Shown here: in pieces, positions 14,336 to 29,490 of the stretch
Numbering within the stretch: the stretch's first letter is position 1
Layout of the letters: each line of letters begins with the position of its first letter
Source of the DNA: a bacterium
GTDB taxonomy: Bacteria; Patescibacteriota; Minisyncoccia; UBA6257; JAGOQP01
NCBI GenBank assembly: GCA_021780615.1
Contig: JAJXYJ010000018.1
Span: 1-29,490, forward strand
DNA: 29,490 bases
Direction: 5' to 3'
Notes under the pieces: model-generated
The model's input: the letters and a program-made list of their open reading frames with translations, nothing else
Database searches by the model: none
Told to the model about the DNA's origin: nothing
Position numbers and translations under genes: made by a program

Positions 14336-16843
14336 ATGAAGGAAAAAAAACAGCAAACGCCATCGCCACAAGAAGATTCAACACAAGCAGTGACATCGGA
14401 AAATCAACATATTACCGATACAGAAATTACCGCTGAGCTTGAAAAATCGTATATCGACTATGCCATGTCGGTTATTGTGGCGCGCGCACTTCCTGATGTG
14501 CGTGATGGATTAAAGCCGGTGCATCGGAGAATTTTATGGGCAATGTGGGATAGCGGACTCACGCACAGTGCGAAATATCGCAAATCAGCAAACGTTGTTG
14601 GTGAGGTGTTGGGAAGATACCATCCGCACGGCGATTCATCGGTATATGACGCCATGGTGCGCATGGCACAAAGCTTTTCATTGCGCTACCCCCTCATTGA
14701 AGGTCAGGGAAACTGGGGATCGGTTGATGGTGATAACGCGGCGGCAATGCGGTACACAGAGTGTAAACTTTCAAAAATAGCCGAAGAGATGCTGACCGAC
14801 ATTGAAAAGGAGACTGTTGATTTTATTCCTAACTATGATGGCACGCGTCTTGAGCCACTCGTACTGCCCTCAAAAATTCCACAACTGTTATTAAATGGAA
14901 CGGTTGGTATTGCGGTGGGTATGGCAACTGACATTCCTCCCCACAACCTTGGGGAAGTGACGAGCGCTATTCAATATCTTATTCAAAAACCATCGGCGAC
15001 TGTTGCTGATCTTATGGGATTTATTAAGGGGCCTGACTTTCCAACGGGGGGGATTATTTATGATCAAAAAAATATCGTTGAAACGTATAGCACGGGACAA
15101 GGATCCATTACGTGTCGCGCGCGCGCAGAGATTGTTGAGCGCAAGGCGGGACAATTTAATATTGTTATTTCAGAAATTCCCTATCGTGTAAACAAGTCAG
15201 ATCTTATACAAAAAATCGCTCTCTTAGTGGGAGAGAAAAAACTGGAAGGAATAAAAGATTTGCGTGACGAAAGCGATAAAGACGGACTCTCTATTGTTGT
15301 GGAATTGAAAAATGACGCCGCACCGCAAAAGATTTTAAACCAACTCTTTAAACTGACAGAACTTCAAAAGGACTTTCATTTAAACATGATCGGACTCGTG
15401 GGCGGACTTCAGCCGCAGCTGCTTTCTATTAAGGATGTGTTGGAGCAGTATGTGGCGCATCGCAAGCAAGTGGTCCGCCGGCGCACTGAATTTGATTTAG
15501 CACGTGCCAAAGAGCGGGCGCATATTCTTGAGGGTTTTGTGAAAGCATTGGATGTTATTGATGCAGTGATTGCGACCATTAAAAAATCAAAAGACAAAGA
15601 CGACGCGCATACAAACTTGATGAAGAAGTTTGATTTTAGTGATGTGCAGGCAACCGCTATTTTGGAAATGCGCCTACAAACACTCGCATCCCTTGAGCGG
15701 CAAAAAATTGAAGATGAATTAGCCGAAAAGAGACAGCTCATCAAAGATTTGGAATTTATCTTGTCAGCAGATAAAAATATTTTGCATGTGGTAGAAGAAG
15801 AGCTGGCGGAGATGAAAGAAAAATATGGCGATGATCGTCGTACGGGCGTTGTGGGTACGGGATTAACCGAATTCAAAGACGAAGATTTGATTGCTGATGA
15901 GGATGTCATTATCACTCTTTCTTCGAGTGGCTACATTAAGCGATTAAACCCCAATATTTATAAAGTGCAGCACCGCGGCGGCAAAGGACTCATTGGCTCT
16001 GATGTGAATGATGATGATTTTTTGACGCATTTGGTGTCGGCGCGGACACACGATAACATTCTCTTTTTCACCGATTCAGGAAAAGTTTTTCAAACAAAGG
16101 TGTATGAAATTCCCCAAGGTTCGCGCACTGCAAAAGGAAAAATTATACATAATTTTCTCGACATTCCTTCAACAGAAACGGTAAAAGCGTTTGTGACCTA
16201 TAACGCCAAAACATCGGATGCAAAGTTTTTGGTTATGGCAACGGCACAGGGGGTTGTCAAAAAAACTCCGCTTGAAGATTTTGCCAATGTGCGGCGCAAC
16301 GGGATTATTGCTCTGAAATTAAAGCCAGGTGATGCCCTTAAGTGGGTCATGTCTTCGTCAGGCAAAGACGATGTGTTGTTTGCCACGGCGCTGGGGCAAG
16401 CGATTCGATTCAAAGAATCACAGCTACGTCCCATGGGCAGAGCGGCTGCGGGGGTGCGGGGTATGCGCCTAAAGAAAAATGATTACCTCATTGGCATTGA
16501 TATGGTGCGCAAGGGTGGCAGTGAGGAGTCGCGCATGAATGAAAAACATAAACTATTAGTCATGACGCAAAAAGGATTTGCCAAGCAGACACTGTTGGCA
16601 GAATACAAGATACAGTCGCGCGGGGGACAAGGTATCCGAACCGCAAAAATAAATGATAAAACAGGACCGTTGGTGGCGTGTAAAATTTTAACCAATGAAG
16701 AAGAAGCGCTTGTGTTGTCAGCAAAGGGGCAAGTCATTAAAACAAAACTGACCGACATTCGCGAAAGTTCTCGATCCACAAGCGGGGTACGAGTTATGCG
16801 TCTTAACGACAAGGACGCCATCGTCGCGGTTACCTGTTCATAA
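14336..16843 (+). CDS. gyrA: DNA gyrase subunit A
   Basis: [28 protein letters not shown]…; YHPHGD(S)[11 protein letters not shown] in the QRDR region (active-site Tyr further downstream); about 835 aa with a C-terminal beta-pinwheel region. No gyrB is adjacent. Confidence 0.95.
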
Positions 16844-16871
16844 TCATCCATTGCTTGTGCAGTAAAAATTG

Positions 16872-16904
16872 AACGTGTATACTTCGTGTATACACGTTTT
16901 ATTT
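16872..16904 (+). terminator. Intrinsic terminator after gyrA (AACGTGTATAC-TTCGT-GTATACACGTT plus TTTTATTTATT)
   Basis: 11-bp perfect stem with a T-rich tail. It lies inside the tool's extended ORF for the next gene, so the SBP most likely starts at the ATG at 16910. Confidence 0.65.
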
Positions 16905-16909
16905 ATTGT

Positions 16910-18241
16910 ATGAATTTTCAAGGACTTTCTCGACAGCAAATGATTGTGCTCGGTATTGCCGGAGCGCTTGTGCTGATTCTGGTGCTGGGAATCATGGGGA
17001 TTCTTCCTCTCTTTAAGAGTACCACCACGGATCCAAACTTTCCTTCCGGGCCAGTTATATTGACTATGTGGGGGGTTGATAATCAAGCCGATTTTGCCGA
17101 TGTGTTTACTGCCTACCAAGCGCTCCCACAGGCAAAAAATGTTAAAATCCTTTACACGCAATTTAATTCAGTAAGCCAATATGAACAGGCGTTAGTTAAT
17201 GCTCTCGCGGAAGGGAAGGGACCTGATATTTTTATGGTTAAAAATACGTGGGCATATAAAGATGCCGCCAAGGGAGCTCCCGCTCCAACGACATTAGTAA
17301 CGCCGCTTATGGTGCAACAAAATTTCCCCGCGGTTGTTGGGCAGGATTTTTTGTTGCAAGCATCAAATGGGCAACAGTATGCATTTGCTCTACCTCTCTA
17401 TATGGATGCGCTCGGGTTGATATATAACAAAGATATCTTTAATACGCGGGGTATCGTATATCCACCACAGACGTGGGATCAGGTGCTTGCGGATGTGCAA
17501 CAGACTCGCGTGCAAGACGCATCTAAAAATATTACTCAAGCAGGCATTGCATTGGGAAGCGCAGTTAATATTACGAACGTGAGTGATATTCTTTCGGCAC
17601 TCATATTGCAACAAGGATCTTCTATCTATACGGCGGCTCAAGGAGGGGTGTCATTGCAAACCGCCGCGCAGCAAGCTGTTTCATTCTTTTTACAATTTGC
17701 TAATCCAACGAATCCATACTACACATGGAATGATGGTATGCCGGATGCGCGTACGGCATTTGCAAATGGTACGGTAGCAATGATACTTGATACACACGAC
17801 GCACTGGCGACCATGGCAGAAAAAAATCCCTTCATGCATGCTGCTATCGCTCCTTTGCCGCAACTGGCATCCGCGAATGCCGCCACCACAAAAAACTATG
17901 CAAGCTATTGGGGGTTAGCTGTGTCTCGACAATCACAAAATCAATACGTGGCATGGCATTTTATACGATTCGCAACAATGACGCCGTCGGTTGATACGCT
18001 GTACCTACAAAAAGCAAACAGATTTCCCGCGCTCCTTTCTTTGATACAAGCGCAGGAAAGTGGTCCTGACGAAGCGTTTATTAAAAGCTTTTTAACGGCA
18101 ACGTCGTGGAAGCAAGCGGATGATGAAAAAATCAGTGCTATATTTAATCAGATGATTGAAGATGTGACGAGTGGAAAAGCGGTGTTGGGAAAAGCGTTGC
18201 AAGCGGCAGAAGCAGATATAAACGCTCTCTATACCCATTAA
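16910..18241 (+). CDS. Extracellular solute-binding protein (ABC-transporter SBP family 1-like), N-terminally TM-anchored
   Basis: N-terminal signal anchor (MIVLGIAGALVLILVLGIMGIL), then an SBP_bac_1-like domain (…VILTMWGVDNQ…, …EGKGPDIFMVKNTWAYK…). No permease or ATPase genes are adjacent. Only 24 nt separate its stop from the first pilin-like gene. Confidence 0.6.
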   Translation: MNFQGLSRQQMIVLGIAGALVLILVLGIMGILPLFKSTTTDPNFPSGPVILTMWGVDNQADFADVFTAYQALPQAKNVKILYTQFNSVSQYEQALVNALAEGKGPDIFMVKNTWAYKDAAKGAPAPTTLVTPLMVQQNFPAVVGQDFLLQASNGQQYAFALPLYMDALGLIYNKDIFNTRGIVYPPQTWDQVLADVQQTRVQDASKNITQAGIALGSAVNITNVSDILSALILQQGSSIYTAAQGGVSLQTAAQQAVSFFLQFANPTNPYYTWNDGMPDARTAFANGTVAMILDTHDALATMAEKNPFMHAAIAPLPQLASANAATTKNYASYWGLAVSRQSQNQYVAWHFIRFATMTPSVDTLYLQKANRFPALLSLIQAQESGPDEAFIKSFLTATSWKQADDEKISAIFNQMIEDVTSGKAVLGKALQAAEADINALYTH

Positions 18242-18265: not shown

Positions 18266-18646
18266 ATGGATTTTAATAAAAAAAATTTGTTCATAACATG
18301 GGGGGTACGTGCGATAACCGCATGTGGAGTCATTCTCTTTTCGCTTCCTCTGTGGGCACGCGCCGCACTTATTACTTGTGGAAATGATCCCAATGGTGCC
18401 CCCTGTACGTACAATGATTTTAAAACGACTCTTGATGGAGTGGTACAGTTTTCCATACTCTACATCGCTATTCCTGCGGCGGTGATAGTGATTGTTATTG
18501 GAGGCATTATGATGATTTTAGATGGTGGTAATGAGTCTCGATTCAAACAAGGAAAGAAAATGATACAGGGAGTTATTATTGGATTGCTCATAACATTGGG
18601 AGCATGGATTATTGTTAAAACAATTCTCAATCTTTTATTTACCTAA
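18266..18646 (+). CDS. TrbC/VirB2-like (T4SS pilin-like) small secreted two-helix protein, paralog 1 of 5
   Basis: Sec-type signal peptide with AxA site (…LPLWARA|A). The mature part has two hydrophobic helices separated by a Lys-rich loop (…IVIVIGGIMMILDGGNESRFKQGKKMIQGVIIGLLITLGAWIIV…). Confidence 0.55.
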   Translation: MDFNKKNLFITWGVRAITACGVILFSLPLWARAALITCGNDPNGAPCTYNDFKTTLDGVVQFSILYIAIPAAVIVIVIGGIMMILDGGNESRFKQGKKMIQGVIIGLLITLGAWIIVKTILNLLFT

Positions 18647-18649
18647 GGT

Positions 18650-19048
18650 ATGCAGTATACTAGGCGCATATATATGAAGAGATTCATTGTCACAATTCCT
18701 GTATTATATGTATTAAGCATAGCACCGAGTGTTTTTGCGAACGGTACAGGGGATACAGGGGGAGCAAATCCAACAGACATACAACTTACCAATCCATTGA
18801 GTGGTAATGTAAACGATGTTCCTTCTCTGTTAAATAAGATTATTCAGTACCTGCAGATTATCGCGGTACCACTTTTGACAATCGCCATTATTATGGGGGC
18901 GTTCCAAATGCTTACCGCCGGAGGAGATGAAGCTAAATTTAAAAAAGGCAAAAAAACAATTACCTATGCGGCTATTGGCGCGGCGGTCATTATGGCGGCG
19001 AGCGGTATTATTTTAATTATCAAACAATTTTTAGGGGCAACGTCGTAA
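18650..19048 (+). CDS. TrbC/VirB2-like small secreted two-helix protein, paralog 2
   Basis: Signal peptide …SIAPSVFA|N. Core …IQYLQIIAVPLLTIAIIMGAFQMLTAGGDEAKFKKGKKTITYAAIGAAVIMAASGIILIIKQF… is alignable with paralogs 1 and 3-5. The start could be the internal MKRF at 18674. Confidence 0.55.
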   Translation: MQYTRRIYMKRFIVTIPVLYVLSIAPSVFANGTGDTGGANPTDIQLTNPLSGNVNDVPSLLNKIIQYLQIIAVPLLTIAIIMGAFQMLTAGGDEAKFKKGKKTITYAAIGAAVIMAASGIILIIKQFLGATS

Positions 19049-19085
19049 CGTTGGTTGCAACGCATCCCCGCATTTATTATTTATT

Positions 19086-19436
19086 ATGATATACACTACA
19101 AAACTAAAAGCAGCCACATCGTCAATCTTTCTTTCACTACTAGTTCTTCCGGCTTACGCGGCGGCACAATCGCTTCCCAGCGCACCAATCAGTAGTTACA
19201 ATGATATTGTGTTACTTTTGGAGAAAGCGGTGCAGTGGATGTATCAAATATTTTTTATTCTTGCGGTGCTCTTTATCCTTGTTGCCGCGTTTACCTACCT
19301 GCGTGCTGGCGGGGATGCCGCGCAGGTAAAGAAGGCACAAACCATACTCAAGAACGCGGTCATTGCCATTGTTATTGCATTGATATCAACGGCTGCGTCG
19401 GTCATTATTCAAAATTTTATCAACCCTCATAATTAA
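19086..19436 (+). CDS. TrbC/VirB2-like small secreted two-helix protein, paralog 3
   Basis: Signal peptide …LVLPAYA|AAQ. Core AVQWMYQIFFILAVLFILVAAFTYLRAGGDAAQVKKAQTILKNAVIAIVIALISTAASVIIQNF. Confidence 0.55.
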   Translation: MIYTTKLKAATSSIFLSLLVLPAYAAAQSLPSAPISSYNDIVLLLEKAVQWMYQIFFILAVLFILVAAFTYLRAGGDAAQVKKAQTILKNAVIAIVIALISTAASVIIQNFINPHN

Positions 19437-19858
19437 TGACATCACGAAATGGTATGAAGAAATATTTATTACTCATTGCGCTTATTTTTCTCATTGGACT
19501 TCCCTTTGTAGTCCATGCGGGTATCATTGATCCCTTTAATAAGGGAGATATGACCTCTCCTATTCAATCAGCAGGGGGTGCTTTGGGAGTTGTCATTGTT
19601 GCTATTCAGTGGATGTATACTATCTTTTTTATTGTAGCAGTGTTCTTTATTTTAATGGCGGCATACAATTTTGTATTGGGGGGAGCGAATGAAAAAAAAG
19701 TTGCCGCCGCAAAAGGACAGTTAAAATATGCCGCCATTGCCATCGTGGTAGCACTCCTTGCTTCGGGTATGAGTTTGGTGATTAGTAATTTTTTGCAAAA
19801 TCCCGCAAGTGCCGGATCGCAACCGACCACCACGATTCCACCAACGACCACTCTCTAG
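19436..19858 (+). CDS. TrbC/VirB2-like small secreted two-helix protein, paralog 4 (Thr/Pro-rich C-terminal tail)
   Basis: TAATG stop-start overlap with paralog 3. Signal peptide …LPFVVHA|G. Core AIQWMYTIFFIVAVFFILMAAYNFVLGGANEKKVAAAKGQLKYAAIAIVVALLASGMSLVISNF. The tail is …GSQPTTTIPPTTTL. Confidence 0.55.
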   Translation: MTSRNGMKKYLLLIALIFLIGLPFVVHAGIIDPFNKGDMTSPIQSAGGALGVVIVAIQWMYTIFFIVAVFFILMAAYNFVLGGANEKKVAAAKGQLKYAAIAIVVALLASGMSLVISNFLQNPASAGSQPTTTIPPTTTL

Positions 19859-19939
19859 GTATCTCTTGCGACCAGATGTTGTATAGTATATACTGCCTGC
19901 AAGCATTCAAAGGTCGTTGCTTTTAAATAATGAATTGCT

Positions 19940-20341
19940 ATGAAAAATAAAATCATTCCCGTGTTCGTCTATATGTTCGTCATTGGCATTGTGGTATTGA
20001 GTGTCGGTCCCGCATTTGCACAGGTTATTATCCCTGGACAAACGCCGGCTCCATTCATTAACCAACAGGGCCCCAGTAGCGTTTCAGGATGGGTACAGGT
20101 AGTACTTACTGTTATTAAATGGTTTTACAGCATCATCTTTATCATTGCTGTATTCTTCATTCTTATGGCGGCATTCCATTTCGTCACCAGTAAGGGAGAT
20201 CCTGGTAAGACAAAGACAGCACGCTCGGAACTTATGTATGCAGTCGTAGGAATCGCCGTAGCATTGCTTTCCTATGGAATTGTGGCGTTTATCGGTAACA
20301 CTGTAAATACCGCAACAAACACGCAAGGAACATCCTTCTAG
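19940..20341 (+). CDS. TrbC/VirB2-like small secreted two-helix protein, paralog 5 (separated by an ~80-bp spacer with a possible own promoter)
   Basis: Signal peptide …SVGPAFA|Q. Core VIKWFYSIIFIIAVFFILMAAFHFVTSKGDPGKTKTARSELMYAVVGIAVALLSYGIVAFIGN. A terminator follows. Confidence 0.55.
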   Translation: MKNKIIPVFVYMFVIGIVVLSVGPAFAQVIIPGQTPAPFINQQGPSSVSGWVQVVLTVIKWFYSIIFIIAVFFILMAAFHFVTSKGDPGKTKTARSELMYAVVGIAVALLSYGIVAFIGNTVNTATNTQGTSF

Positions 20342-20366: not shown

Positions 20367-20397
20367 TAAAAAAGCCCCGCATACGCGGGGTTTTTAA
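20367..20397. terminator. Bidirectional intrinsic terminator (AAAAAAGCCCCGC-ATAC-GCGGGGTTTTT) between the pilin-like array and the convergent SPFH operon
   Basis: Perfect 7-bp GC stem flanked by an A-tract and a T-tract. Confidence 0.75.
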
Positions 20398-20415: not shown

Positions 20416-20862
20416 TTATTCTGTGGAAATAAGCATTTTCTGCGGGGATGGTCCGGACCATATCCAAAAGGTCCTTTCATCCCAATTAAAACGAACAAAC
20501 GGAGGTCCCTTCCCTCTTTTTGCCCAAATGGTATCGGGCTGAGCTCGTCCGAGGGACCATATAATACAATAGCCGGTGCTATTGTATGGCGGGAGGAAAT
20601 CCATATTCCACTTTGCAACATCCTTTAGGCGAAGGATGACTGCGCTGGTGGGAGCATTGAATGTCAAAGAATTTCCACCATGGATGACGAGTTCTCCATT
20701 GTGCCATCCGCTGGTGGACAAGGATGTTTTTTTAGAATTAGAAGTAAGATAATGAATCTCTATATATCCTATATATATTGCTATGAGGATAAAAATAATT
20801 GATATTTTTTTTAAAATACCGCTTATTTTTTTAGCTGCCGTCACCTTTTTTGCATTACTCAT
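20416..20862 (-). CDS. Hypothetical bitopic membrane protein (N-terminal TM plus Trp-rich extracytoplasmic domain) co-transcribed with the SPFH gene; possibly NfeD-like
   Basis: ATGA stop/start overlap with the upstream SPFH gene. One TM helix (ISIIFILIAIYIGYI). No recognisable motif. The NfeD-like role is guessed only from its association with an SPFH gene. Confidence 0.35.
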   Translation of the reverse strand: MSNAKKVTAAKKISGILKKISIIFILIAIYIGYIEIHYLTSNSKKTSLSTSGWHNGELVIHGGNSLTFNAPTSAVILRLKDVAKWNMDFLPPYNSTGYCIIWSLGRAQPDTIWAKRGKGPPFVRFNWDERTFWIWSGPSPQKMLISTE

Positions 20863-22022
20863 GATCTTCCTCCTTTCCTTTTCTTTTTGTTGTCGTCTTT
20901 TTCATCTTCGTCCTGTTGTCTAAGAGGAGATGAGCCGCTAAGATTAAGCATGGCTAGCGCATTATTTGCACCCCCTCCATCGATGATGAAGCGAGTTGCT
21001 TTTCCTCGTTCTGTTTGAACGAGATTTGCAGCCATTTCAGCGCTGAGTCCTGCTTTCATGTAGTCTTTAATGCCACGGATGACGCCCAGTCTTTCAACGC
21101 GTTCGCTTATTTTTTGGATGCGTTCCTTCTCTATTTTCCGCGTTTCTATATCTACGGATTCCTTTGCTTTTGTAACTGCCTCATCCGCTTTTACTTCTGT
21201 AATATTGAATCGGGACACTGTGATGCCGAGTCCTTTAACCTTAACGTTGCCGTTCCCCTTTTTAAGGAGGGTTATGTTTTCTTCAAGACCATCCTCTTCG
21301 GATATTTGGAGAAGTACCGATTTTACAAAATCAGTCCCTGCTCCAGCAGCATCTTCCCATGTTTCCGGGAACGCCCCATCTTTTTCCGCAAGCTCTCTGA
21401 TTGCTTGGGCAATCATCCCGACAAGGATTTTTTCTACCTTGTCAAAATGATTTTTTTCCGTTTTTTCTTTTATAAATCCTGCATATTCCGTAAACTTACG
21501 GAAATCATGGATAAAGAACGCAAGTTCAAACATCACTTTACTATCGACTTGATCCTTTGATGTCCGCACTTCGTCTATGGTTTCTGTATAGCTTTGAGAA
21601 GATACATCGACAAGTACAAAGTTTTGAAACCAGGGGTAAAATAACAAGAATCTATTTCCGGGCTGATAGAGGGGAATAGGTAGTCGTTCGAACCAGTTTT
21701 CGTCTTCCCCATTCCTTTTTTTTAACTTCTTGGAGATGTAATAGAAAGGAGAGACTCCTTCTCTGTAATAATCTTCAAGAATAATTAAGGCGAATTTATA
21801 GGGTTTACTAGGAATTTCTACATACCCTGTTTCGTACATATTCCTTGCCCATTGAATACATGATGCAAGTAATACAAGTATCAGAATCGAGAATACTGTT
21901 GCGGAAATAATTCCGAGCACTTCTATAATAAATGAAAGAAAAAAGAGGACTACATATAACCCTCCAGCAAAAACAAATGGCGTCTTAAATTTAAAGAGAC
22001 CATTATCATAAATCCAACTCAT
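20859..22022 (-). CDS. SPFH/band-7 (stomatin/prohibitin/flotillin-like) domain membrane protein
   Basis: Two N-terminal TM segments. SPFH-like core (…TIDEVRTSKDQVDSKVMFELAFFIHDF…ILVGMIAQAIRELAEKDGA…VKVKGLGITVSRFNITEV…). Then a coiled-coil region and a charged tail. Confidence 0.7.
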   Translation of the reverse strand: MSWIYDNGLFKFKTPFVFAGGLYVVLFFLSFIIEVLGIISATVFSILILVLLASCIQWARNMYETGYVEIPSKPYKFALIILEDYYREGVSPFYYISKKLKKRNGEDENWFERLPIPLYQPGNRFLLFYPWFQNFVLVDVSSQSYTETIDEVRTSKDQVDSKVMFELAFFIHDFRKFTEYAGFIKEKTEKNHFDKVEKILVGMIAQAIRELAEKDGAFPETWEDAAGAGTDFVKSVLLQISEEDGLEENITLLKKGNGNVKVKGLGITVSRFNITEVKADEAVTKAKESVDIETRKIEKERIQKISERVERLGVIRGIKDYMKAGLSAEMAANLVQTERGKATRFIIDGGGANNALAMLNLSGSSPLRQQDEDEKDDNKKKRKGGRS

Positions 22023-22609: not shown

Positions 22610-24664
22610 ATGTTGTACTATCTCATTTTTGTTCCGATTGCAGCGGCAATAGTATATGCCGCCGCGTTAATAGGATGGCTCACTAAACAACCATCTGGTA
22701 GTGATGCCATGCAGGCAATTTCTAAAGCAATTCAGGTCGGTTCTAAAGCATACCTCAATCGTCAGTATCGGACGGTGGCGGTAGTGGCGGTCATTCTCTT
22801 TTTAGTCATTGGTATTTTTATTGGCTGGCTCTCCGCATTGGGGTTTGTTGTGGGTGCAGTCCTTTCTGCACTTGCTGGCTACATTGGTATGAATGTGGCG
22901 GTGCGCTCAAATACAAAGACGGCGCAGGCGGCACACAAGGGTGTGGGCTCAGCACTGTCGGTGGCCTTTCGCGCCGGTTCAGTGACGGGACTATTGGTGG
23001 TGGCCTTGGGGCTTTTGGCGGTTGCCGGATTTTATCTGGTGAGCGGACAACAAGTTGAAGCACTTATTGGTCTTGGATTTGGAGCGAGCTTAATATCTAT
23101 TTTTGCCCGTTTAGGTGGTGGTATTTTTACCAAAGCAGCTGATGTGGGCACTGATTTAGTTGGTAAGCTTGAGGCAGGCATTCCGGAAGACGATCCTCGT
23201 AATCCCGGTGTTATCGCTGACAATGTCGGTGATAACGTGGGAGATTGTGCGGGTATGGCGGCGGATCTTTTTGAGACATATGCGGTTACGTTAACAGCGG
23301 CAATGCTTATCGGCTCTACCTTTCAGTATATTTCTGGAGAGCAGTTGTTTTTCCCGCTCGTCTTGGGTGGCGCGGCAATTATCGCATCAATCATCGGTAC
23401 TTTCTTTGTGCGAGGGAACCACACCAAAGATATTATGAAAGCGCTCTACAAAGGATTGGCAGTGGCGCTGGTTATTTCTGCGGGACTCTTCTATTGGGCG
23501 TCAGCGGTATTTTTCCCCAACACTATTTCAAATGTATTTATTCCCAGTATTGTCGGTCTTGCGGTGACGGCGTTGATGGTGGTGATTACGGATTACTACA
23601 CTGCTAAAAAATTCCGTCCGGTTAAAAGTATTTCCAATGCTTCGAATTCGGGACATGGAACAAACATTATTATGGGACTTTCGGTTGGTATGGAGGCGAC
23701 GTTCCTGCCCATTCTGGTTATTGCGGCAGGTATTTTAGTTTCATACTTCAGCTTCGGGGTGTATGGAGTGGCGATTGCAGCAACGGCGATGCTTTCGGTG
23801 GCAGGCATTATTGTGGCTATTGATTCATTCGGTCCGGTCACTGACAACGCCGGTGGCATTGCAGAGATGACACAGGCTCCCGAAGAAGTGCGGAGAGTAA
23901 CCGATGCGCTTGATGCGGTGGGCAACACCACCAAAGCGGTAACTAAAGGATATGCGATTGCTTCCGCAGGACTTGCGGCACTAGCGCTTTTTGCCGGGTT
24001 TACCGATCAGGTGAGTAAGGCATTGGGTCCCTTGGGACAAAATATTACTCAGCTCATGTATAACATCACCGATCCGTTTGTATTAACGGGACTCTTGATT
24101 GGAGCATCTCTTCCGTACCTCTTCTCATCTATTGCTATGAAATCAGTGGGAAAGGCGGCGGGTGTATTAGTGCATGAAATCCGTCGACAATTTAGAGATA
24201 TTGCAGGACTTATGGAAGGAACTGCAAAACCGGAATACGACAAGGCGGTTGATATTGTTACCAAAGCGGCGCTTCGGGAAATGATTGTCCCGGCTCTGCT
24301 ACCGATTGTCGCGGTATTGGTTGTTGGATTTGGATTTAAATATGGCGCCGGAGCTTTTCTCAATGGTATTAATCCGCAGGCGGGCATGGTCATTGGAGCA
24401 CAAGCCCTCGGTGGCATGCTTATCGGTGTTATTGTCTCGGGATTATTCTTGGCAATCTCCATGACATCGGGTGGTGCCGCATGGGATAATGCAAAGAAGC
24501 ACATCGAAGACGGTAATCATGGTGGTAAAGGTTCCGAAGCACACAAGGCAGCAGTGACGGGAGACACTGTCGGTGATCCCTACAAGGATACTGCGGGCCC
24601 GGCAATCAATCCGCTTATTAAAGTGATTATGATTGTGGCATTGCTTATTGTGCCGTTGCTCTAA
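22610..24664 (+). CDS. hppA: Membrane-bound proton-translocating pyrophosphatase (H+-PPase), predicted K+-independent subtype
   Basis: 684 aa polytopic protein. PPase signature [17 protein letters not shown]…[35 protein letters not shown]. The GNTTKA motif has Lys where K+-dependent enzymes have Ala (GNTTAA). Confidence 0.9.
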
Positions 24665-25637: not shown

Positions 25638-25883
25638 AAAATAATGTACAAATATTAGTTCACAATTTTCATTAAAATTCTTAAACCAACATCTATCACA
25701 GGAAAAAATTTTAATAGTATTGGAAATTGATCATTGGTAATTGAACATTCCACATGTGAAGATGTGTGGATTATATCATATTGTGCGACAGAATGGGGAA
25801 ATGGGGTATAAAAAAGAAAGGGAGGAGTGTTATTATGGACGCGAATTGACTTTTAGGGGCAAAAGCCGTATACTCAAAAAACT

Positions 25884-26150
25884 ATGTTAACGACTCGTAA
25901 AAAACAGAACGTCATCAAAGATGTGCGTATACACGACACTGATACCGGATCAGCGCAGGTTCAAGTAGGACTTGTGTCACGGCAAATAGATGAGCTCGCA
26001 AAGCATCTTAAGTCAAACCCGAAGGACAATTCCTCTCGCCGCGGACTTTTAAAGATGGTTTCAAAACGGCGTAAATTGCTTGATTATTTGTCTCACACCA
26101 ACGAAAAAGCCTACGCTACAGTAGTCAAAAAGCTTGGGCTCAAAAAATAA
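25884..26150 (+). CDS. rpsO: 30S ribosomal protein S15
   Basis: 88 aa (…GSAQVQVGLVSRQIDELAKHLKSNPKDNSSRRGLLKMVSKRRKLLDYL…), typical S15. Confidence 0.9.
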   Translation: MLTTRKKQNVIKDVRIHDTDTGSAQVQVGLVSRQIDELAKHLKSNPKDNSSRRGLLKMVSKRRKLLDYLSHTNEKAYATVVKKLGLKK

Positions 26151-26155
26151 GCATC

Positions 26156-26695
26156 ATGCACAATCAGGATCAACGAGTTGGAGTCTTTATTGATATCCAA
26201 AACTTGTATCACTCCGCCAAAAACCTGCACACTGCAAAGGTTAATTTTCCGTCGTTGTTAAAGTTTCTTGTGGGATCACGCCACCTCATTCGTGCGATTG
26301 GGTACGTGGTCAAAAGCGACTCCTCGCTTGGGGAGCAGTCTTTCTTTGAAGCCCTTGAAAAGGGCGGTATTGAATTACGCACCAAAGATTTGCAGGTGTA
26401 TGCTGATGGTATGAAAAAGGGTGATTGGGACGTGGGGATTGCTGTAGATGCTATCCGCATGAGCCAGTCACTTGATGTGGCAATTTTGGTGACCGGCGAC
26501 GGTGACTTTGTGCCACTCGTTGAATATTTAAAGTGGGGTCGCGGTTGTCATGTTGAGGTGGCGTCGTTTGGGCGGAGTACGTCCGCTCGTCTCAAAGATG
26601 TCGCTGACACCTACATTAATATCGACGATATGCCACAGATGCTTATTCGTGGAGGAAGAAATTCGCATTCGCGAATGAGTAGGAGGAGTAAGTAG
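26156..26695 (+). CDS. NYN-domain (LabA-like, PIN-fold) putative ribonuclease
   Basis: VGVFIDIQNLYHSAKNL… and …AILVTGDGDFVPLVEYL… match NYN/LabA signature regions. Starts 5 nt after the rpsO stop. Basic C-terminal tail. Confidence 0.65.
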   Translation: MHNQDQRVGVFIDIQNLYHSAKNLHTAKVNFPSLLKFLVGSRHLIRAIGYVVKSDSSLGEQSFFEALEKGGIELRTKDLQVYADGMKKGDWDVGIAVDAIRMSQSLDVAILVTGDGDFVPLVEYLKWGRGCHVEVASFGRSTSARLKDVADTYINIDDMPQMLIRGGRNSHSRMSRRSK

Positions 26696-26891
26696 TAAAC
26701 GGAACAGTCAAAGGGCAGAGATCAAAAGCGAGGAGGAGTAGAGTGGTAAAAAGTTTGCCACTTGTGCATCTTTTCACTTTTGACTTTTGCGCTTTTGGCA
26801 TTTCGTTTTGCATACAACGGGGTTTTGCGTGTGGCGCGATGCCTTCGTGGTACATATTATTTTTAACAAGGCAGAAGATATTATTATACAT

Positions 26892-29024
26892 ATGAATATT
26901 CCCAATCAAAAAACGTATACCCTTCCGTTCCATGGTCGTGATTTAAAATTTATCGTATCGTCCCTTGCAGGACAAGCGAATGCATCGGTCATTGGACAGT
27001 ATGGCGGAACGAGCGTCTTGGTGACGGTTGTCATGGGAAAAGAAGATCGTCCCATTGATTTCTTTCCGCTCACCGTTGACTACGAAGAGCGGTTTTACGC
27101 CGCTGGAAAAATTATTGGAAGCCGGTACGTCCGTCGCGAAGGACGTCCTTCACAGGAGGCTATTCTTTCAGGCAGACTCATTGACCGTTCTATTAGGCCG
27201 CTTTTTGACGAACGATTGCGCCGTGATGTGCAGGTGGTAGTGACGGTGCTTTCCTACGATGAAGAAAATGATCCTGACTTTTTGGCGCTCTGCGGTGCGT
27301 CATTAGCGCTTTCCATCTCCGATATTCCCTGGGGAGGTCCCATTGCGGGCGTAAAGCTTGTGCAAAATGGTGATATTACGGTTAATCCTTCCATTAAAGT
27401 CGTGGAGCAACTTCAAGAAACAGGAACTTGTGATGCATTTTTTGCAGGAACTGCAGATGTGGTGAATATGATTGAGTTGGGTGGGAGAGAAATTACGGAA
27501 GCTGGTGCACAGAAAATTTTTACCACCGCACATGAAGAAATAAAAAAATTGATTGCATTTCAAAACGGTATTATTAGTGAAATTGGAAAAAAGAAGGCTG
27601 ATGTTGTCTTCGTGGCAATTGACGAGGCTTTTAAAAAAGCTTTGCACGCGCGTGCGTTTGATGCGCTGAGTGAAACGCTTTTTATCGCTGATGCGACGGA
27701 GCGGGATGAAAAAACAAACGCGCTCAAAGAACTCGTGCATGAAGAGCTGCAGCAACAAGAAGCGTATGCGGTATGCATGCCGCAATTTGATGGTATCTGG
27801 GAGCGATTGTGCAACGAGGTCATCCATCGAACGATGTTGGAAAAGAACAAACGCCCTGATGGACGTGCATTTGATGAGATTCGTCCGCTCCATGCGGAAG
27901 TGGGTTTGTTTGAGCGCCTCCACGGATCATCAATTTTTATGCGTGGACAGACGCAATCATTGGCGGTAACGACATTGGCGGCTCCCGGATCCGAACAGTT
28001 TATAGAAACAATGGAAACGACTGGCAAACGACGCTTTATGTTGCATTACAATTTTCCGCCCTATGCCACCGGTGAAACGGGACGCGTGGGATCTCCGGGA
28101 CGTCGTGAAATTGGTCATGGGGCGCTTGCCGAAAAGGCATTGCGTGCGGTTATTCCTCCCAAGGATGTGTTTCCTTACACGATTCGCGTCGTGTCTGAAA
28201 TTGTCTCATCAAACGGATCTTCGTCTATGGCAAGTGTGTGCGCAGGCACGTTGTCGCTCATGGATGCGGGAGTGCCCCTTACCAAGCCGGTTGCCGGTAT
28301 TGCTATGGGATTAGCCACACCGCAAGGGTATGATAGTTCCAAGGGAGTGGACGAATTTAAAGTGTTTACTGACTTGCAAGGCCTTGAAGATCATTACGGT
28401 GACATGGACTTTAAAGTAGCAGGTACTCGTGATGGCATTACTGCCATTCAGATGGATGTAAAAATTAAAGGTATTTCCTTTGCTATTTATCAGCAGGGAC
28501 TTGCTATGGCACATGATGCGCGGATGAAGATTTTGGATGTCATACAACAAACAATCCCCGCACCTCGTACGAAACTTTCAGCATATGCTCCAAAGATTTT
28601 GACATATGTGGTGAAGCCGAATCAGATTGGATTGGTTATTGGGCAAGGAGGAAAGACGATTAACGGTATTATTGAAGAATTTGGCGTAGAATCGATTGAT
28701 ATTGACGAAGATGGAACAGTGTTTGTGTCCGGCACTGATCAGCAAAAGGTGGAGGATGCCATTGCATACATTAAAAATCTCACTAAAGAGTTTGAAGTAG
28801 GAGAGGTGATTACCGGCCCCATTATCAAACTTCTTGATTTTGGCGCCATTGTCGATTTAGGAGGTGGCAAAGATGGGATGATTCACGTGTCAGAAATAAA
28901 AAATGGCTACGTTGAACGAGCATCTGATCTTCTGAAACTTGGACAAGAAGTAACTGCTAAAGTGGTAAAAGTTGATGAGAATGGCAAGATTGGTCTTTCT
29001 ATAAAAGCGATGGGAGGAAAGTAA
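26892..29024 (+). CDS. pnp: Polyribonucleotide nucleotidyltransferase (PNPase)
   Basis: Two RNase PH-like domains, a KH domain (…VIGQGGKTINGIIEEFGVESIDI…) and a C-terminal S1 domain (…GEVITGPIIKLLDFGAIVDL…GMIHVSEI…). Start at MNIPNQK (26892); the tool ORF is extended upstream into the leader. Confidence 0.95.
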   Translation: MNIPNQKTYTLPFHGRDLKFIVSSLAGQANASVIGQYGGTSVLVTVVMGKEDRPIDFFPLTVDYEERFYAAGKIIGSRYVRREGRPSQEAILSGRLIDRSIRPLFDERLRRDVQVVVTVLSYDEENDPDFLALCGASLALSISDIPWGGPIAGVKLVQNGDITVNPSIKVVEQLQETGTCDAFFAGTADVVNMIELGGREITEAGAQKIFTTAHEEIKKLIAFQNGIISEIGKKKADVVFVAIDEAFKKALHARAFDALSETLFIADATERDEKTNALKELVHEELQQQEAYAVCMPQFDGIWERLCNEVIHRTMLEKNKRPDGRAFDEIRPLHAEVGLFERLHGSSIFMRGQTQSLAVTTLAAPGSEQFIETMETTGKRRFMLHYNFPPYATGETGRVGSPGRREIGHGALAEKALRAVIPPKDVFPYTIRVVSEIVSSNGSSSMASVCAGTLSLMDAGVPLTKPVAGIAMGLATPQGYDSSKGVDEFKVFTDLQGLEDHYGDMDFKVAGTRDGITAIQMDVKIKGISFAIYQQGLAMAHDARMKILDVIQQTIPAPRTKLSAYAPKILTYVVKPNQIGLVIGQGGKTINGIIEEFGVESIDIDEDGTVFVSGTDQQKVEDAIAYIKNLTKEFEVGEVITGPIIKLLDFGAIVDLGGGKDGMIHVSEIKNGYVERASDLLKLGQEVTAKVVKVDENGKIGLSIKAMGGK

Positions 29025-29063
29025 GTGCACTCTCTTGTCTCTACCTATAGAAGATTACCTATA

Positions 29064-29105
29064 TACAATCAAAAACCGCCTCATGGGCGGTTTTTGATTG
29101 TATAC
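29064..29105. terminator. Bidirectional intrinsic terminator within a larger inverted repeat (TACAATCAAAAACCGCC-TCAT-GGGCGGTTTTTGATTGTA)
   Basis: GC stem with symmetric A/T flanks, between pnp and the convergent 3D-domain gene. Confidence 0.75.
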
Positions 29106-29490
29106 TACAGTAATTCAATAGCGAGTCGTTGTCTGCCAAAATCAATCGCTGACTGTCTTGAATTAAACCATATATCAATTATATGTGTTCCATCATACCG
29201 AGCATTCATGCGATCATCGACGGTGAACACTTTATCACCATAGTACGCAGGGATTTTAAACCGAGTCCCAAAAGGGAGAAAGTTTGCCGCAACGATGCCA
29301 TCGTGGACATAATCACCTGACGCTGTAATGAAGGGGGTGCTATCGGTTTGATCGGGAGTGCTTGAGTAGGCGGTTGCTACGACAACTAAAGTTGCCGGAG
29401 GATTTCGCTTGATGACGGATGGTTTTGTTGAAGTTGAAGGATTTTCAACGACTGCATCCGGCACGGCAACGTCACAATGCCGCCGGTCGG
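29105..29490 (-). CDS. 3D-domain (MltA-like/RlpA-like double-psi beta-barrel) cell-wall-associated protein, N-terminally truncated by the window edge
   Basis: The C-terminus …VAANFLPFGTRFKIPAYYGDKVFTVDDRMNARYDGTHIIDIWFNSRQSAIDFGRQRLAIELL matches the 3D domain with its conserved Asp residues. The frame stays open to the window end; the tool start is a GTG. Confidence 0.6.
   Translation of the reverse strand, partial: DRRHCDVAVPDAVVENPSTSTKPSVIKRNPPATLVVVATAYSSTPDQTDSTPFITASGDYVHDGIVAANFLPFGTRFKIPAYYGDKVFTVDDRMNARYDGTHIIDIWFNSRQSAIDFGRQRLAIELL

Follow-up and report, generated by a model that had tools for sequence, protein, structure and literature searches.

We analysed a stretch of 29,490 nucleotides (nt), positions 1 to 29,490 of contig JAJXYJ010000018.1 in assembly GCA_021780615.1, which is called the window below. 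It holds a tandem array of five plus-strand genes (P1 to P5, positions 18266-20341) for small proteins resembling the TrbC/VirB2 pilins of type IV secretion systems (T4SSs). The nearest relatives of the GyrA protein encoded in the window, at 71-76% identity, were metagenome-assembled genomes of Parcubacteria, including the complete 562-kb genome AP024682.1 (561,860 bp). This supports a host among the Parcubacteria (Paceibacteria) in the candidate phyla radiation (CPR)/Patescibacteria lineage, in line with a preliminary description of this DNA made from its letters. Patescibacteria form a large part of the diversity of bacteria and rely on host cells. All five open reading frames (ORFs) of that description were found where it had placed them, and their products could be aligned with one another, with 21-44% pairwise identity in a protein alignment. 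The intergenic distances were 3, 37, -1 (an ATGA overlap between P3 and P4) and 81 nt, close to the 4, ~38, -1 and ~80 nt given before. All five pilin genes are complete in the window; their types and type margins, in bits, are those of the comparison described below:

18266-18646, plus strand: P1, type A VirB2-like pilin, 126 amino acids (aa); PF18895 score 29.9 bits, type A margin 44 bits
18650-19048, plus strand: P2, type B VirB2-like pilin, 132 aa; PF18895 score 44.0 bits, type B margin 50 bits
19086-19436, plus strand: P3, type C VirB2-like pilin (extra copy), 116 aa; PF18895 score 33.3 bits, type C margin 37 bits
19436-19858, plus strand: P4, type C VirB2-like pilin (extra copy), 140 aa; PF18895 score 28.1 bits, type C margin 28 bits
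19940-20341, plus strand: P5, terminal type C VirB2-like pilin, 133 aa; PF18895 score 31.2 bits, type C margin 26 bits

The five proteins share one architecture. Each N-terminus has a basic part and a hydrophobic segment, followed by a predicted cleavage site with small residues at -3 and -1 (ARA↓A, VFA↓N, AYA↓A, VHA↓G and AFA↓Q in P1 to P5, respectively); signal peptides and helices were called from hydropathy and the -3/-1 rule. The signal peptide with an AxA site that the preliminary description had assigned to each protein held as far as a cleavage site on all five is concerned, but only three of the five sites are strictly AxA, and the other two are VxA. The mature part consists of two long hydrophobic helices joined by a G-G-D/N...K-rich loop. 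It measures 90-112 aa and not the ~70 aa stated earlier, a length that fits the hairpin core alone. An AlphaFold2 model of P3, built with 70 homologs, showed helices at residues 6-26 (the signal), 38-73 and 78-112, with a core predicted local distance difference test (pLDDT) score of ~86. From these predictions, mature P1 to P5 should be helical hairpins with both termini outside and the Lys-rich loop toward the cytoplasm. The C-terminus of P4 is QPTTTIPPTTTL, a 20-aa Ser/Thr/Pro-rich tail, and corresponds to the Thr/Pro-rich tail noted before.

The TrbC/VirB2-like identity put forward in the preliminary description was upheld by searches with curated hidden Markov models (HMMs). All five proteins passed the Pfam gathering cutoff of PF18895 (T4SS_pilin, 26.6 bits), with scores of 28.1-44.0 bits and end-to-end profile coverage, a resemblance well above chance. 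P2, the most TrbC-like of the five, also exceeded the cutoff of PF04956 (TrbC/VirB2, 27.9 bits) with 32.6 bits and near full-length coverage of the profile, and P1 came just under it with 25.8 bits. A profile search of a large protein collection gave 167 matches at E <= 1e-5; among the 120 matches listed, nearly all carry PF18895, ~8 also carry PF04956, and some are named 'pilin' by NCBI. Matches in NCBIfam were sub-threshold only, including P5 against NF045849, a pilin-like protein of a mycoplasma integrative and conjugative element (E = 1.6e-6); the array proteins scored at most 27.7 bits with this model, below its curated cutoff of 40. The NF045849 (Mbov_0395) family likewise consists of small pilin-like proteins with two transmembrane (TM) segments, from an MPF-FATA-type system of wall-less/monoderm cells, but its protein is encoded by a single gene on a mobile element. 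PHROGs and PADLOC gave zero matches for P1 to P5 among phage holin and defence families. Because both searches were empty, holin, phage, defence and immunity-protein identities were set aside, and the match to an unrelated family of this kind that the preliminary description had allowed for was not found. The curated HMMs thus support the five proteins as homologs of TrbC/VirB2-type pilins.

Structural comparison was nondiagnostic. A Foldseek search with the pilin hairpin model gave a best E value of 3.3; the conjugation pilin of Aeropyrum pernix (8dfu) ranked second with E = 3.6, a nonsignificant match that is indistinguishable from those of hundreds of generic helical hairpins. As modelled, the simple two-helix hairpin cannot discriminate among candidate relatives. 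Because the fold is too simple, the homology claim rests on the curated HMMs and on the published association of the family with virB4, not on structure. The novel small-membrane-protein family that had been offered as an alternative does not hold, as the family is already in Pfam and its arrays were published in 2023 and 2025 (PMC10633639, PMC12102498).

No stretch of the alignment of the five paralogs was conserved enough for a DNA-pattern scan, and GyrA was used as the anchor for a comparison with related genomes. We searched 80 GyrA-anchored loci and the window with an HMM made from the five paralogs. Pilin arrays of one to seven genes were found in 35 GyrA-anchored loci (34 relatives and the window), those of one or two genes mainly where contigs end, and all of the arrays lay 3' of gyrA except that of the rearranged locus L010. 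No array was found in the loci of the Saccharimonadia type, which are uninformative on this point, since their contigs end within ~1.4 kb of gyrA.

The arrays proved to be ordered. For 107 of the 121 pilins, the best non-self match was in another genome. The best matches of P1 were position-1 genes and those of P2 mostly position-2 genes of other arrays, and P3 to P5 matched type C genes elsewhere, in most cases the final one of an array; P5 had its best match in the terminal gene of a seven-gene array (L004_7of7, 51% identity), of which it is the ortholog. Type HMMs trained only on 16 three-gene arrays classed the held-out arrays as A-B-C(n), among them ABCCCCC in three cases, ABCC in three and ABCCC in the window, the genes of which were assigned with margins of 26-50 bits. 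A few variant orders (AABC, ABBC and ACCCCB) also occurred. Type C copy number varied from one to five across genomes, and types A and B were single-copy. Each type has its own signature: Cys-containing N- and C-terminal ecto-segments in type A, with a Cys pair in the N-terminal ecto-segment of P1; an N-P-L motif in type B, present in P2; and a conserved Trp in helix 1 of type C. Low-complexity Ser/Thr/Pro/Gly tails like that of P4 were confined to extra, non-terminal C copies. Among the type C copies of the window, the hairpin core is 46% identical, the N-terminal ecto-segment 30% and the tails 18%. By sequence comparison, the existence of three ancient paralog types in the fixed order A-B-C(n), only C varying in number, appears to be a new observation. 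A variant layout was seen at L090:9280-12394, with two pilin genes after the gene for the substrate-binding protein (SBP) described next, then a convergent gene pair, and a third, weakly matching pilin gene beyond the pair.

The array has a constant upstream partner, which follows gyrA in the window:

14336-16843, plus strand: gyrA; Pfam DNA_topoisoIV 3.8e-162
16866-16904, no strand assigned: palindromic hairpin and T-rich run between the gyrA stop and the SBP start; fold z-score -4.7
16910-18241, plus strand: membrane-anchored MalE-like (family 1) oligosaccharide-binding protein; PF01547 2.2e-22

The SBP of the window is a full-length family 1 carbohydrate-binding protein, which matched 5ci5 in a profile search of the Protein Data Bank (PDB) (E = 1.6e-27). 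Its AlphaFold2 model (pLDDT 93.9) has a TM helix at residues 8-28 and then a two-lobe SBP fold, and in Foldseek (E about 1e-23) the closest structures bind malto-, cello- or manno-oligosaccharides or cycloalternan. A partner protein of 425-460 aa adjoins the array in every testable locus (35 gyrA-anchored including the window, 2 pilin-anchored and 4 SBP-anchored), and its gene is separated from the first pilin gene by a few to ~50 nt or overlaps it. The window SBP shares the family 1 substrate-binding fold with the SBPs of ATP-binding cassette (ABC) importers, but unlike theirs its gene has no adjacent permease or ABC ATPase genes. There was no permease among the window ORFs, and no ORF with the Walker-A and LSGGQ motifs of an ABC ATPase was found in 22 loci with the conserved block (~440 kb). 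An obligate MalE-like partner directly before the array, overlooked in the preliminary description, appears to be a second new observation. At L047:5155-6474, an SBP-like gene is split into two ORFs by either a frameshift or a sequencing error, and the three pilin genes behind it are intact.

The gene gyrA precedes the SBP-pilin unit in ~35 loci and is a conserved upstream anchor in most Parcubacteria, not a functional part of the module. It is absent at that position in L098 and L010. In L010, the unit lies upstream of gyrA in the other orientation, and the partner gene is adjacent to the array but divergently transcribed. In L098, a close SBP homolog (55% identity) and an array come directly after FtsH. 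The SBP gene, the array, a convergent small ORF and a larger ORF of the size of an SPFH gene remain together in both, and judged by gene order the SBP-array pairing is preserved through two independent rearrangements. The sister-clade loci L001, L002 and L036, the closest GyrA relatives (76%), have genes for β-CASP, RNase J, SBP_bac_5, SecG and NusA after gyrA instead of the pilin unit; these genes were considered as T4SS candidates and rejected. The arrangements suggest that the pilin unit and gyrA may have become separated in that lineage. The hairpin between gyrA and the SBP gene has two almost perfectly palindromic arms (AAATTGAACGTGTATAC / GTATACACGTTTTATTT) around a 5-nt loop. Of 32 relatives, 12 had a comparable hairpin (z < -2), which is missing where gyrA directly adjoins the SBP gene; the predicted structure could act as a terminator or attenuator, or as an operator that binds a protein.

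The terminal gene of the array is set apart by its spacing:

19859-19939, plus strand: spacer before the terminal pilin gene, 81 nt

The ~80-bp spacer that the preliminary description had singled out before the fifth gene is a conserved trait. Across 27 arrays, the pre-terminal gap had a median of 60 nt, compared with 6 nt for the other gaps (Mann-Whitney p = 6e-5), and it was the largest gap in 20 of them. The spacer between P4 and P5 showed no significant RNA structure (z = 0.11), and the promoter-like match at 19866-19894 within it occurs at chance frequency only. Differential expression of the last array gene is plausible from this spacing, and the conserved longer spacer ahead of the terminal C gene appears not to have been described before.

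We found no silent or partial cassettes, long repeats, invertible elements or flanking inverted repeats in the array; its sole DNA repeat, 44 nt at 82% identity, reflects paralogy. The array therefore lacks the silent cassettes, long repeats and invertible elements of recombination-based antigenic-variation pilin loci. The differences that separate strains in otherwise near-identical assemblies are concentrated in P4 and P5, and of the 10 in P4, 8 fall at third codon positions. The antigenic variation through interchangeable variants that had been suggested for the locus is not supported, in view of the fixed-order types with one-to-one positional orthologs (best match in another genome for 107 of 121 genes), the lack of silent cassettes and recombination repeats and the mostly third-codon differences in P4. 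The pilins do diverge faster than GyrA, S1 and Xer: identity to L004 and L087 was 71 and 77% for GyrA, 69 and 68% for Xer and 66 and 72% for S1, compared with 48 and 50% for the SBP, 32-48% for the pilins and 28 and 31% for the SPFH protein.

On the opposite strand, a pair of genes converges on the array:

20375-20390, no strand assigned: GC-rich hairpin with A-runs and T-runs on its flanks, between the array and the convergent operon
20416-20862, minus strand: single-TM protein of no known family, 148 aa, converging on the array
20859-22022, minus strand: SPFH/Band 7 membrane-scaffold protein; PF01145 2e-6; 4-nt overlap with the 148-aa gene

The 148-aa protein had no match in Pfam, NCBIfam, PHROGs or PADLOC, and most arrays, those of the rearranged L010 and L098 among them, have a gene for ~150-210 aa at the same place. 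Band_7 genes stand at the position of the SPFH gene in L087, L088 and L092. In almost all genomes, the two rearranged ones among them, the small-ORF/SPFH pair converges on the array. The two genes may be an NfeD-like/SPFH pair with a functional link to the array, or their position may simply be conserved synteny. The hairpin at 20375-20390 looks like a bidirectional intrinsic terminator that would close both the array and the convergent operon.

Arrays of this kind are known from other Patescibacteria. Wang et al. 2023 described the pilins of Southlakia epibionticum ML1 inside a T4SS cluster (SEML1_0006-0019) and showed that epibiotic growth requires both the pilins and the T4SS (PMC10633639); Southlakia has six VirB2-like pilins (PMC12857230). 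Quinonero-Coronel et al. 2025 reported 441 VirB2 arrays of 2-11 genes, detected via PF18895/PF04956, with a mean identity of 25% and a maximum of 54% (PMC12102498). In that survey, VirB4 was present in 2417 of 3035 Patescibacteria assemblies, and VirB2-like pilins occurred in 1948 VirB4-positive assemblies and near virB4 in 1135; the arrays were most abundant in Microgenomatia and Saccharimonadia, and a role in host adaptation was suggested. Its map shows the arrays with virB4 as the point of reference ('array near virB4', Supplementary Fig. S9). There is no mention in the paper of gyrA, of a solute-binding protein or of ordered paralog types, and GCA_021837645.1 and AP024682 are not mentioned in the available portion of its supplement text. 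The window array shares Pfam family, phylum, tandem layout, divergence range and detection method with the published arrays and, like them, comprises at least two PF18895/PF04956 genes in tandem, of low identity, in Patescibacteria. The literature thus already covers tandem arrays of divergent VirB2-like genes in CPR genomes, also those at a distance from virB4. The present array differs in that it belongs to a Parcubacteria genome and has no T4SS gene in the ~43 kb surveyed around it.

Comparisons with individual systems showed similarities and differences. The Southlakia array likewise contains divergent, structurally similar VirB2-like pilins in tandem near the origin, but it lies inside a T4SS cluster and is experimentally essential, whereas the window array is detached, paired with an SBP and known from sequence. 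VirB2, TrbC and TraA (Agrobacterium, RP4 and F) share the signal peptide, the ~70-100-aa two-helix hairpin and the short basic loop, and P2 passes the TrbC cutoff; those systems have one major pilin, in contrast to five paralogs of three types in a monoderm host, not beside virB3/virB4. The VirB2 arrays of Bartonella and Anaplasma phagocytophilum, cited in PMC12102498, also arose by tandem amplification and diversification in host-associated bacteria. However, those are recent lineage-specific duplications in diderm pathogens that are read as antigenic variation, whereas two of the three types in the window array are ancient and single-copy and the order is fixed.

We read P1 to P5, with a probability of about 0.6, as the VirB2-like pilin set of a Parcubacteria genome, part of a vertically inherited core unit (SBP-A-B-C(1-5), with the SPFH/small-ORF operon opposite), and propose that a T4SS uses this set in trans. 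The predicted precursors would be processed at the -3/-1 site to yield mature hairpins in the membrane with both termini outside. By analogy with the VirB2/TrbC/TraA pilins and the T4SS-embedded array of Southlakia, this membrane pool may then be drawn upon by an MPF-FATA-like, monoderm-type T4SS encoded at another locus, which would build a pilus or a channel-proximal structure where the cell touches its host; ~80% of Patescibacteria encode such a T4SS. The fixed order and one-to-one orthology suggest non-redundant roles for the three types. Type C, with its variable copies and tails, could be the exposed or bulk subunit, and the single-copy types A, with putatively disulfide-stapled ecto-segments, and B could be minor, initiating or tip subunits. 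The co-transcribed SBP might, more speculatively, recognise a host-surface carbohydrate or aid assembly.

A number of results weigh against this proposal. VirB4, VirB6, VirB3 and VirD4 were not found in the ~43 kb formed by the window and ~13 kb of its flanks, which bears out the earlier remark that no T4SS machinery is in view and extends it beyond the window; nor were VirB4, VirB3 or VirB6 found within +/-8-10 kb at six pilin- or SBP-anchored loci of relatives. P3 to P5 had no match to PF04956, and a sequence-profile search of the PDB did not find a pilin. The 70-sequence family profile showed no detectable similarity to Agrobacterium VirB2 in hhalign (probability 0.6%), a comparison of low power with a single-sequence template, the VirB2 sequence used having been verified as 99.2% identical to annotated virB2. 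A tblastn search of P2 against 72,556 PLSDB plasmids gave nothing at E <= 1. Pilus formation in Patescibacteria is only a 'potential' in a 2025 review of T4SSs (PMC12857230). Gene order is the sole basis of the roles proposed here for the three pilin types and the SBP.

The main rival of the T4SS proposal is an envelope module independent of any T4SS, in which VirB2-like hairpins and an orphan MalE-like SBP, possibly organised by the SPFH protein, would serve carbohydrate sensing, adhesion or uptake with neither VirB4 nor a pilus. We regard it as unlikely, although by no means negligible, since no machinery is linked to the array and no pilus has been seen in the phylum. The unit of SBP, A-B-C(n) and small ORF/SPFH has been kept through two rearrangements with T4SS genes never nearby, the SBP has a complete and confidently modelled oligosaccharide-binding fold with no ABC ATPase in the 22 block loci and no permease among the window ORFs, and fixed, stoichiometric-looking types would suit a defined hetero-complex. 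T4SSs of Gram-positive bacteria, moreover, normally lack pilins (PMC12102498, PMC12857230). However, 1135 assemblies have members of the PF18895 family in or beside T4SS clusters, in Southlakia both the family and the T4SS are essential, and no transporter or receptor made of VirB2-like hairpins is known. An SBP with no local permease is not unusual, and synteny is generally high in streamlined genomes, where the SPFH adjacency may be gene order alone.

The view of the preliminary description and of the 2025 paper, a repertoire of equivalent paralogs expressed differentially to evade host defences or to match host strains, seems improbable to us. It fits the one to five type C copies, the variable low-complexity tails of the extra ones, type C termini that are more divergent (18-30% identity) than the core (46%), the conserved spacer of the terminal gene, the strain differences clustered in P4 and P5, and pilins that diverge faster than GyrA, S1 and Xer. 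Types A and B, on the other hand, are single-copy, with one-to-one orthologs at fixed positions across deep divergence. The array has only the 44-nt repeat of 82% identity and no silent or partial cassettes, long repeats or invertible elements, 8 of the 10 P4 differences are at third codon positions, and the promoter-like matches are at chance level, so that a variant repertoire would apply at most to the type C sub-array. That P1 to P5 are unrelated small hydrophobic proteins (holins, bacteriocin-immunity proteins or spurious ORFs) matching the HMMs by composition is effectively refuted, and we give it almost no weight. Short hydrophobic proteins with modest scores (28-44 bits) and no significant sequence or fold link to solved pilins might invite such a reading, but all five passed a curated cutoff with end-to-end coverage and have hundreds of conserved homologs of the same architecture, and the conserved order and orthology, the empty PHROGs and PADLOC searches and the published linkage to virB4 are against it.

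The observations that are new here, namely the A-B-C(n) architecture, the terminal spacer and the MalE-like partner, are modest. They turn a vague idea of variable pilins into testable hypotheses on major and minor subunits and on the SBP as adhesin or assembly partner. Few functions have been proven essential for epibiotic growth, and the T4SS with its pilin array is one of them. In the Parcubacteria/Paceibacteria, the largest class, the pilins are encoded by a core-genome operon that lies apart from the T4SS, and arrays detached in this way will escape surveys that start from virB4. A bolder and rather doubtful idea is that the Parcubacteria SBP-A-B-C(n) unit, possibly with the SPFH pair, is a distinct envelope apparatus combining three hairpin types with a carbohydrate receptor, either a glycan-targeting pilus with the SBP as adhesin or a T4SS-independent complex for host contact or uptake. 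If true, such an SBP-pilin apparatus would be a previously undescribed host-recognition architecture for ultrasmall episymbionts.

The remaining genes of the region give the array its chromosomal setting. Positions 4-25917 of the window match contig JAKBFO010000003.1 of assembly GCA_021837645.1, and positions 25856-29473 match JAKBFO010000021.1 of the same assembly. The window ORFs of at least 100 aa are all housekeeping or otherwise unrelated to T4SSs; they include PBP1a, RuvC, YebC, Obg, PepF, FtsH, S1, a metallo-β-lactamase-fold protein, GyrA, the SBP, the SPFH protein, H+-PPase, Xer, NYN and PNPase. Rfam matched only three tRNAs in the window. The ~6 kb to the left of the window hold dnaN, dnaA, rnpA, yidC, jag and a type IV pilus-type pilin-like gene, and the ~7 kb to the right hold genes for RecO, a surface protein, glycyl-tRNA synthetase, an M16 peptidase and an AI-2E transporter. 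The array lies ~20 kb from dnaA, and because the cumulative GC skew climbs along the plus strand of the window, it is suggested to lie on the leading strand. T4SS genes were looked for beside dnaA, the usual site of virB4 (PMC12102498), but the gene after rnpA-yidC-jag encodes a type IV pilus-type N-methyl pilin-like protein and not VirB4. This gene (L086:17134-18525, ~4.7-6 kb left of the window start) encodes at least 464 aa with a type IV pilin N-methylation motif and an FGE-sulfatase-like domain, a pilin-like protein near the origin that is different from the VirB2-like pilins.

In the Saccharimonadia-type loci L062-L080, most contigs, although from independent assemblies, stop 500-1400 nt past gyrA, which suggests that something just 3' of gyrA breaks the assembly, for instance a repeat, a hypervariable region or an rRNA operon. 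Loci of this type also have large Walker-A ORFs near gyrB/gyrA, which were considered as VirB4 candidates but matched VirD4/TraG coupling-protein families instead. These ORFs (L062:2384-5392, L054:3008-5545 and 14 similar ones) encode 836-1031-aa VirD4/TraG-type homologs with DUF87, TraG-D_C and T4SS-DNA_transf matches. A T4SS-family ATPase gene thus lies a few kb 5' of gyrA in the Saccharimonadia-type loci, and a pilin array lies 3' of gyrA in the Parcubacteria.

Two clusters of single-nucleotide polymorphisms (SNPs) between the near-identical assemblies were observed elsewhere in the window. One comprises 8 SNPs in 55 nt of the H+-PPase gene (24550-24604), and the other, in the PNPase gene (28253-28478), holds at least 24 of the 59 PNPase differences within ~230 nt. 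The SNPs in both genes are spaced in multiples of three, and at least one of the contigs that differ ends close to each cluster. The clusters are probably strain-variable segments or a chimeric consensus.

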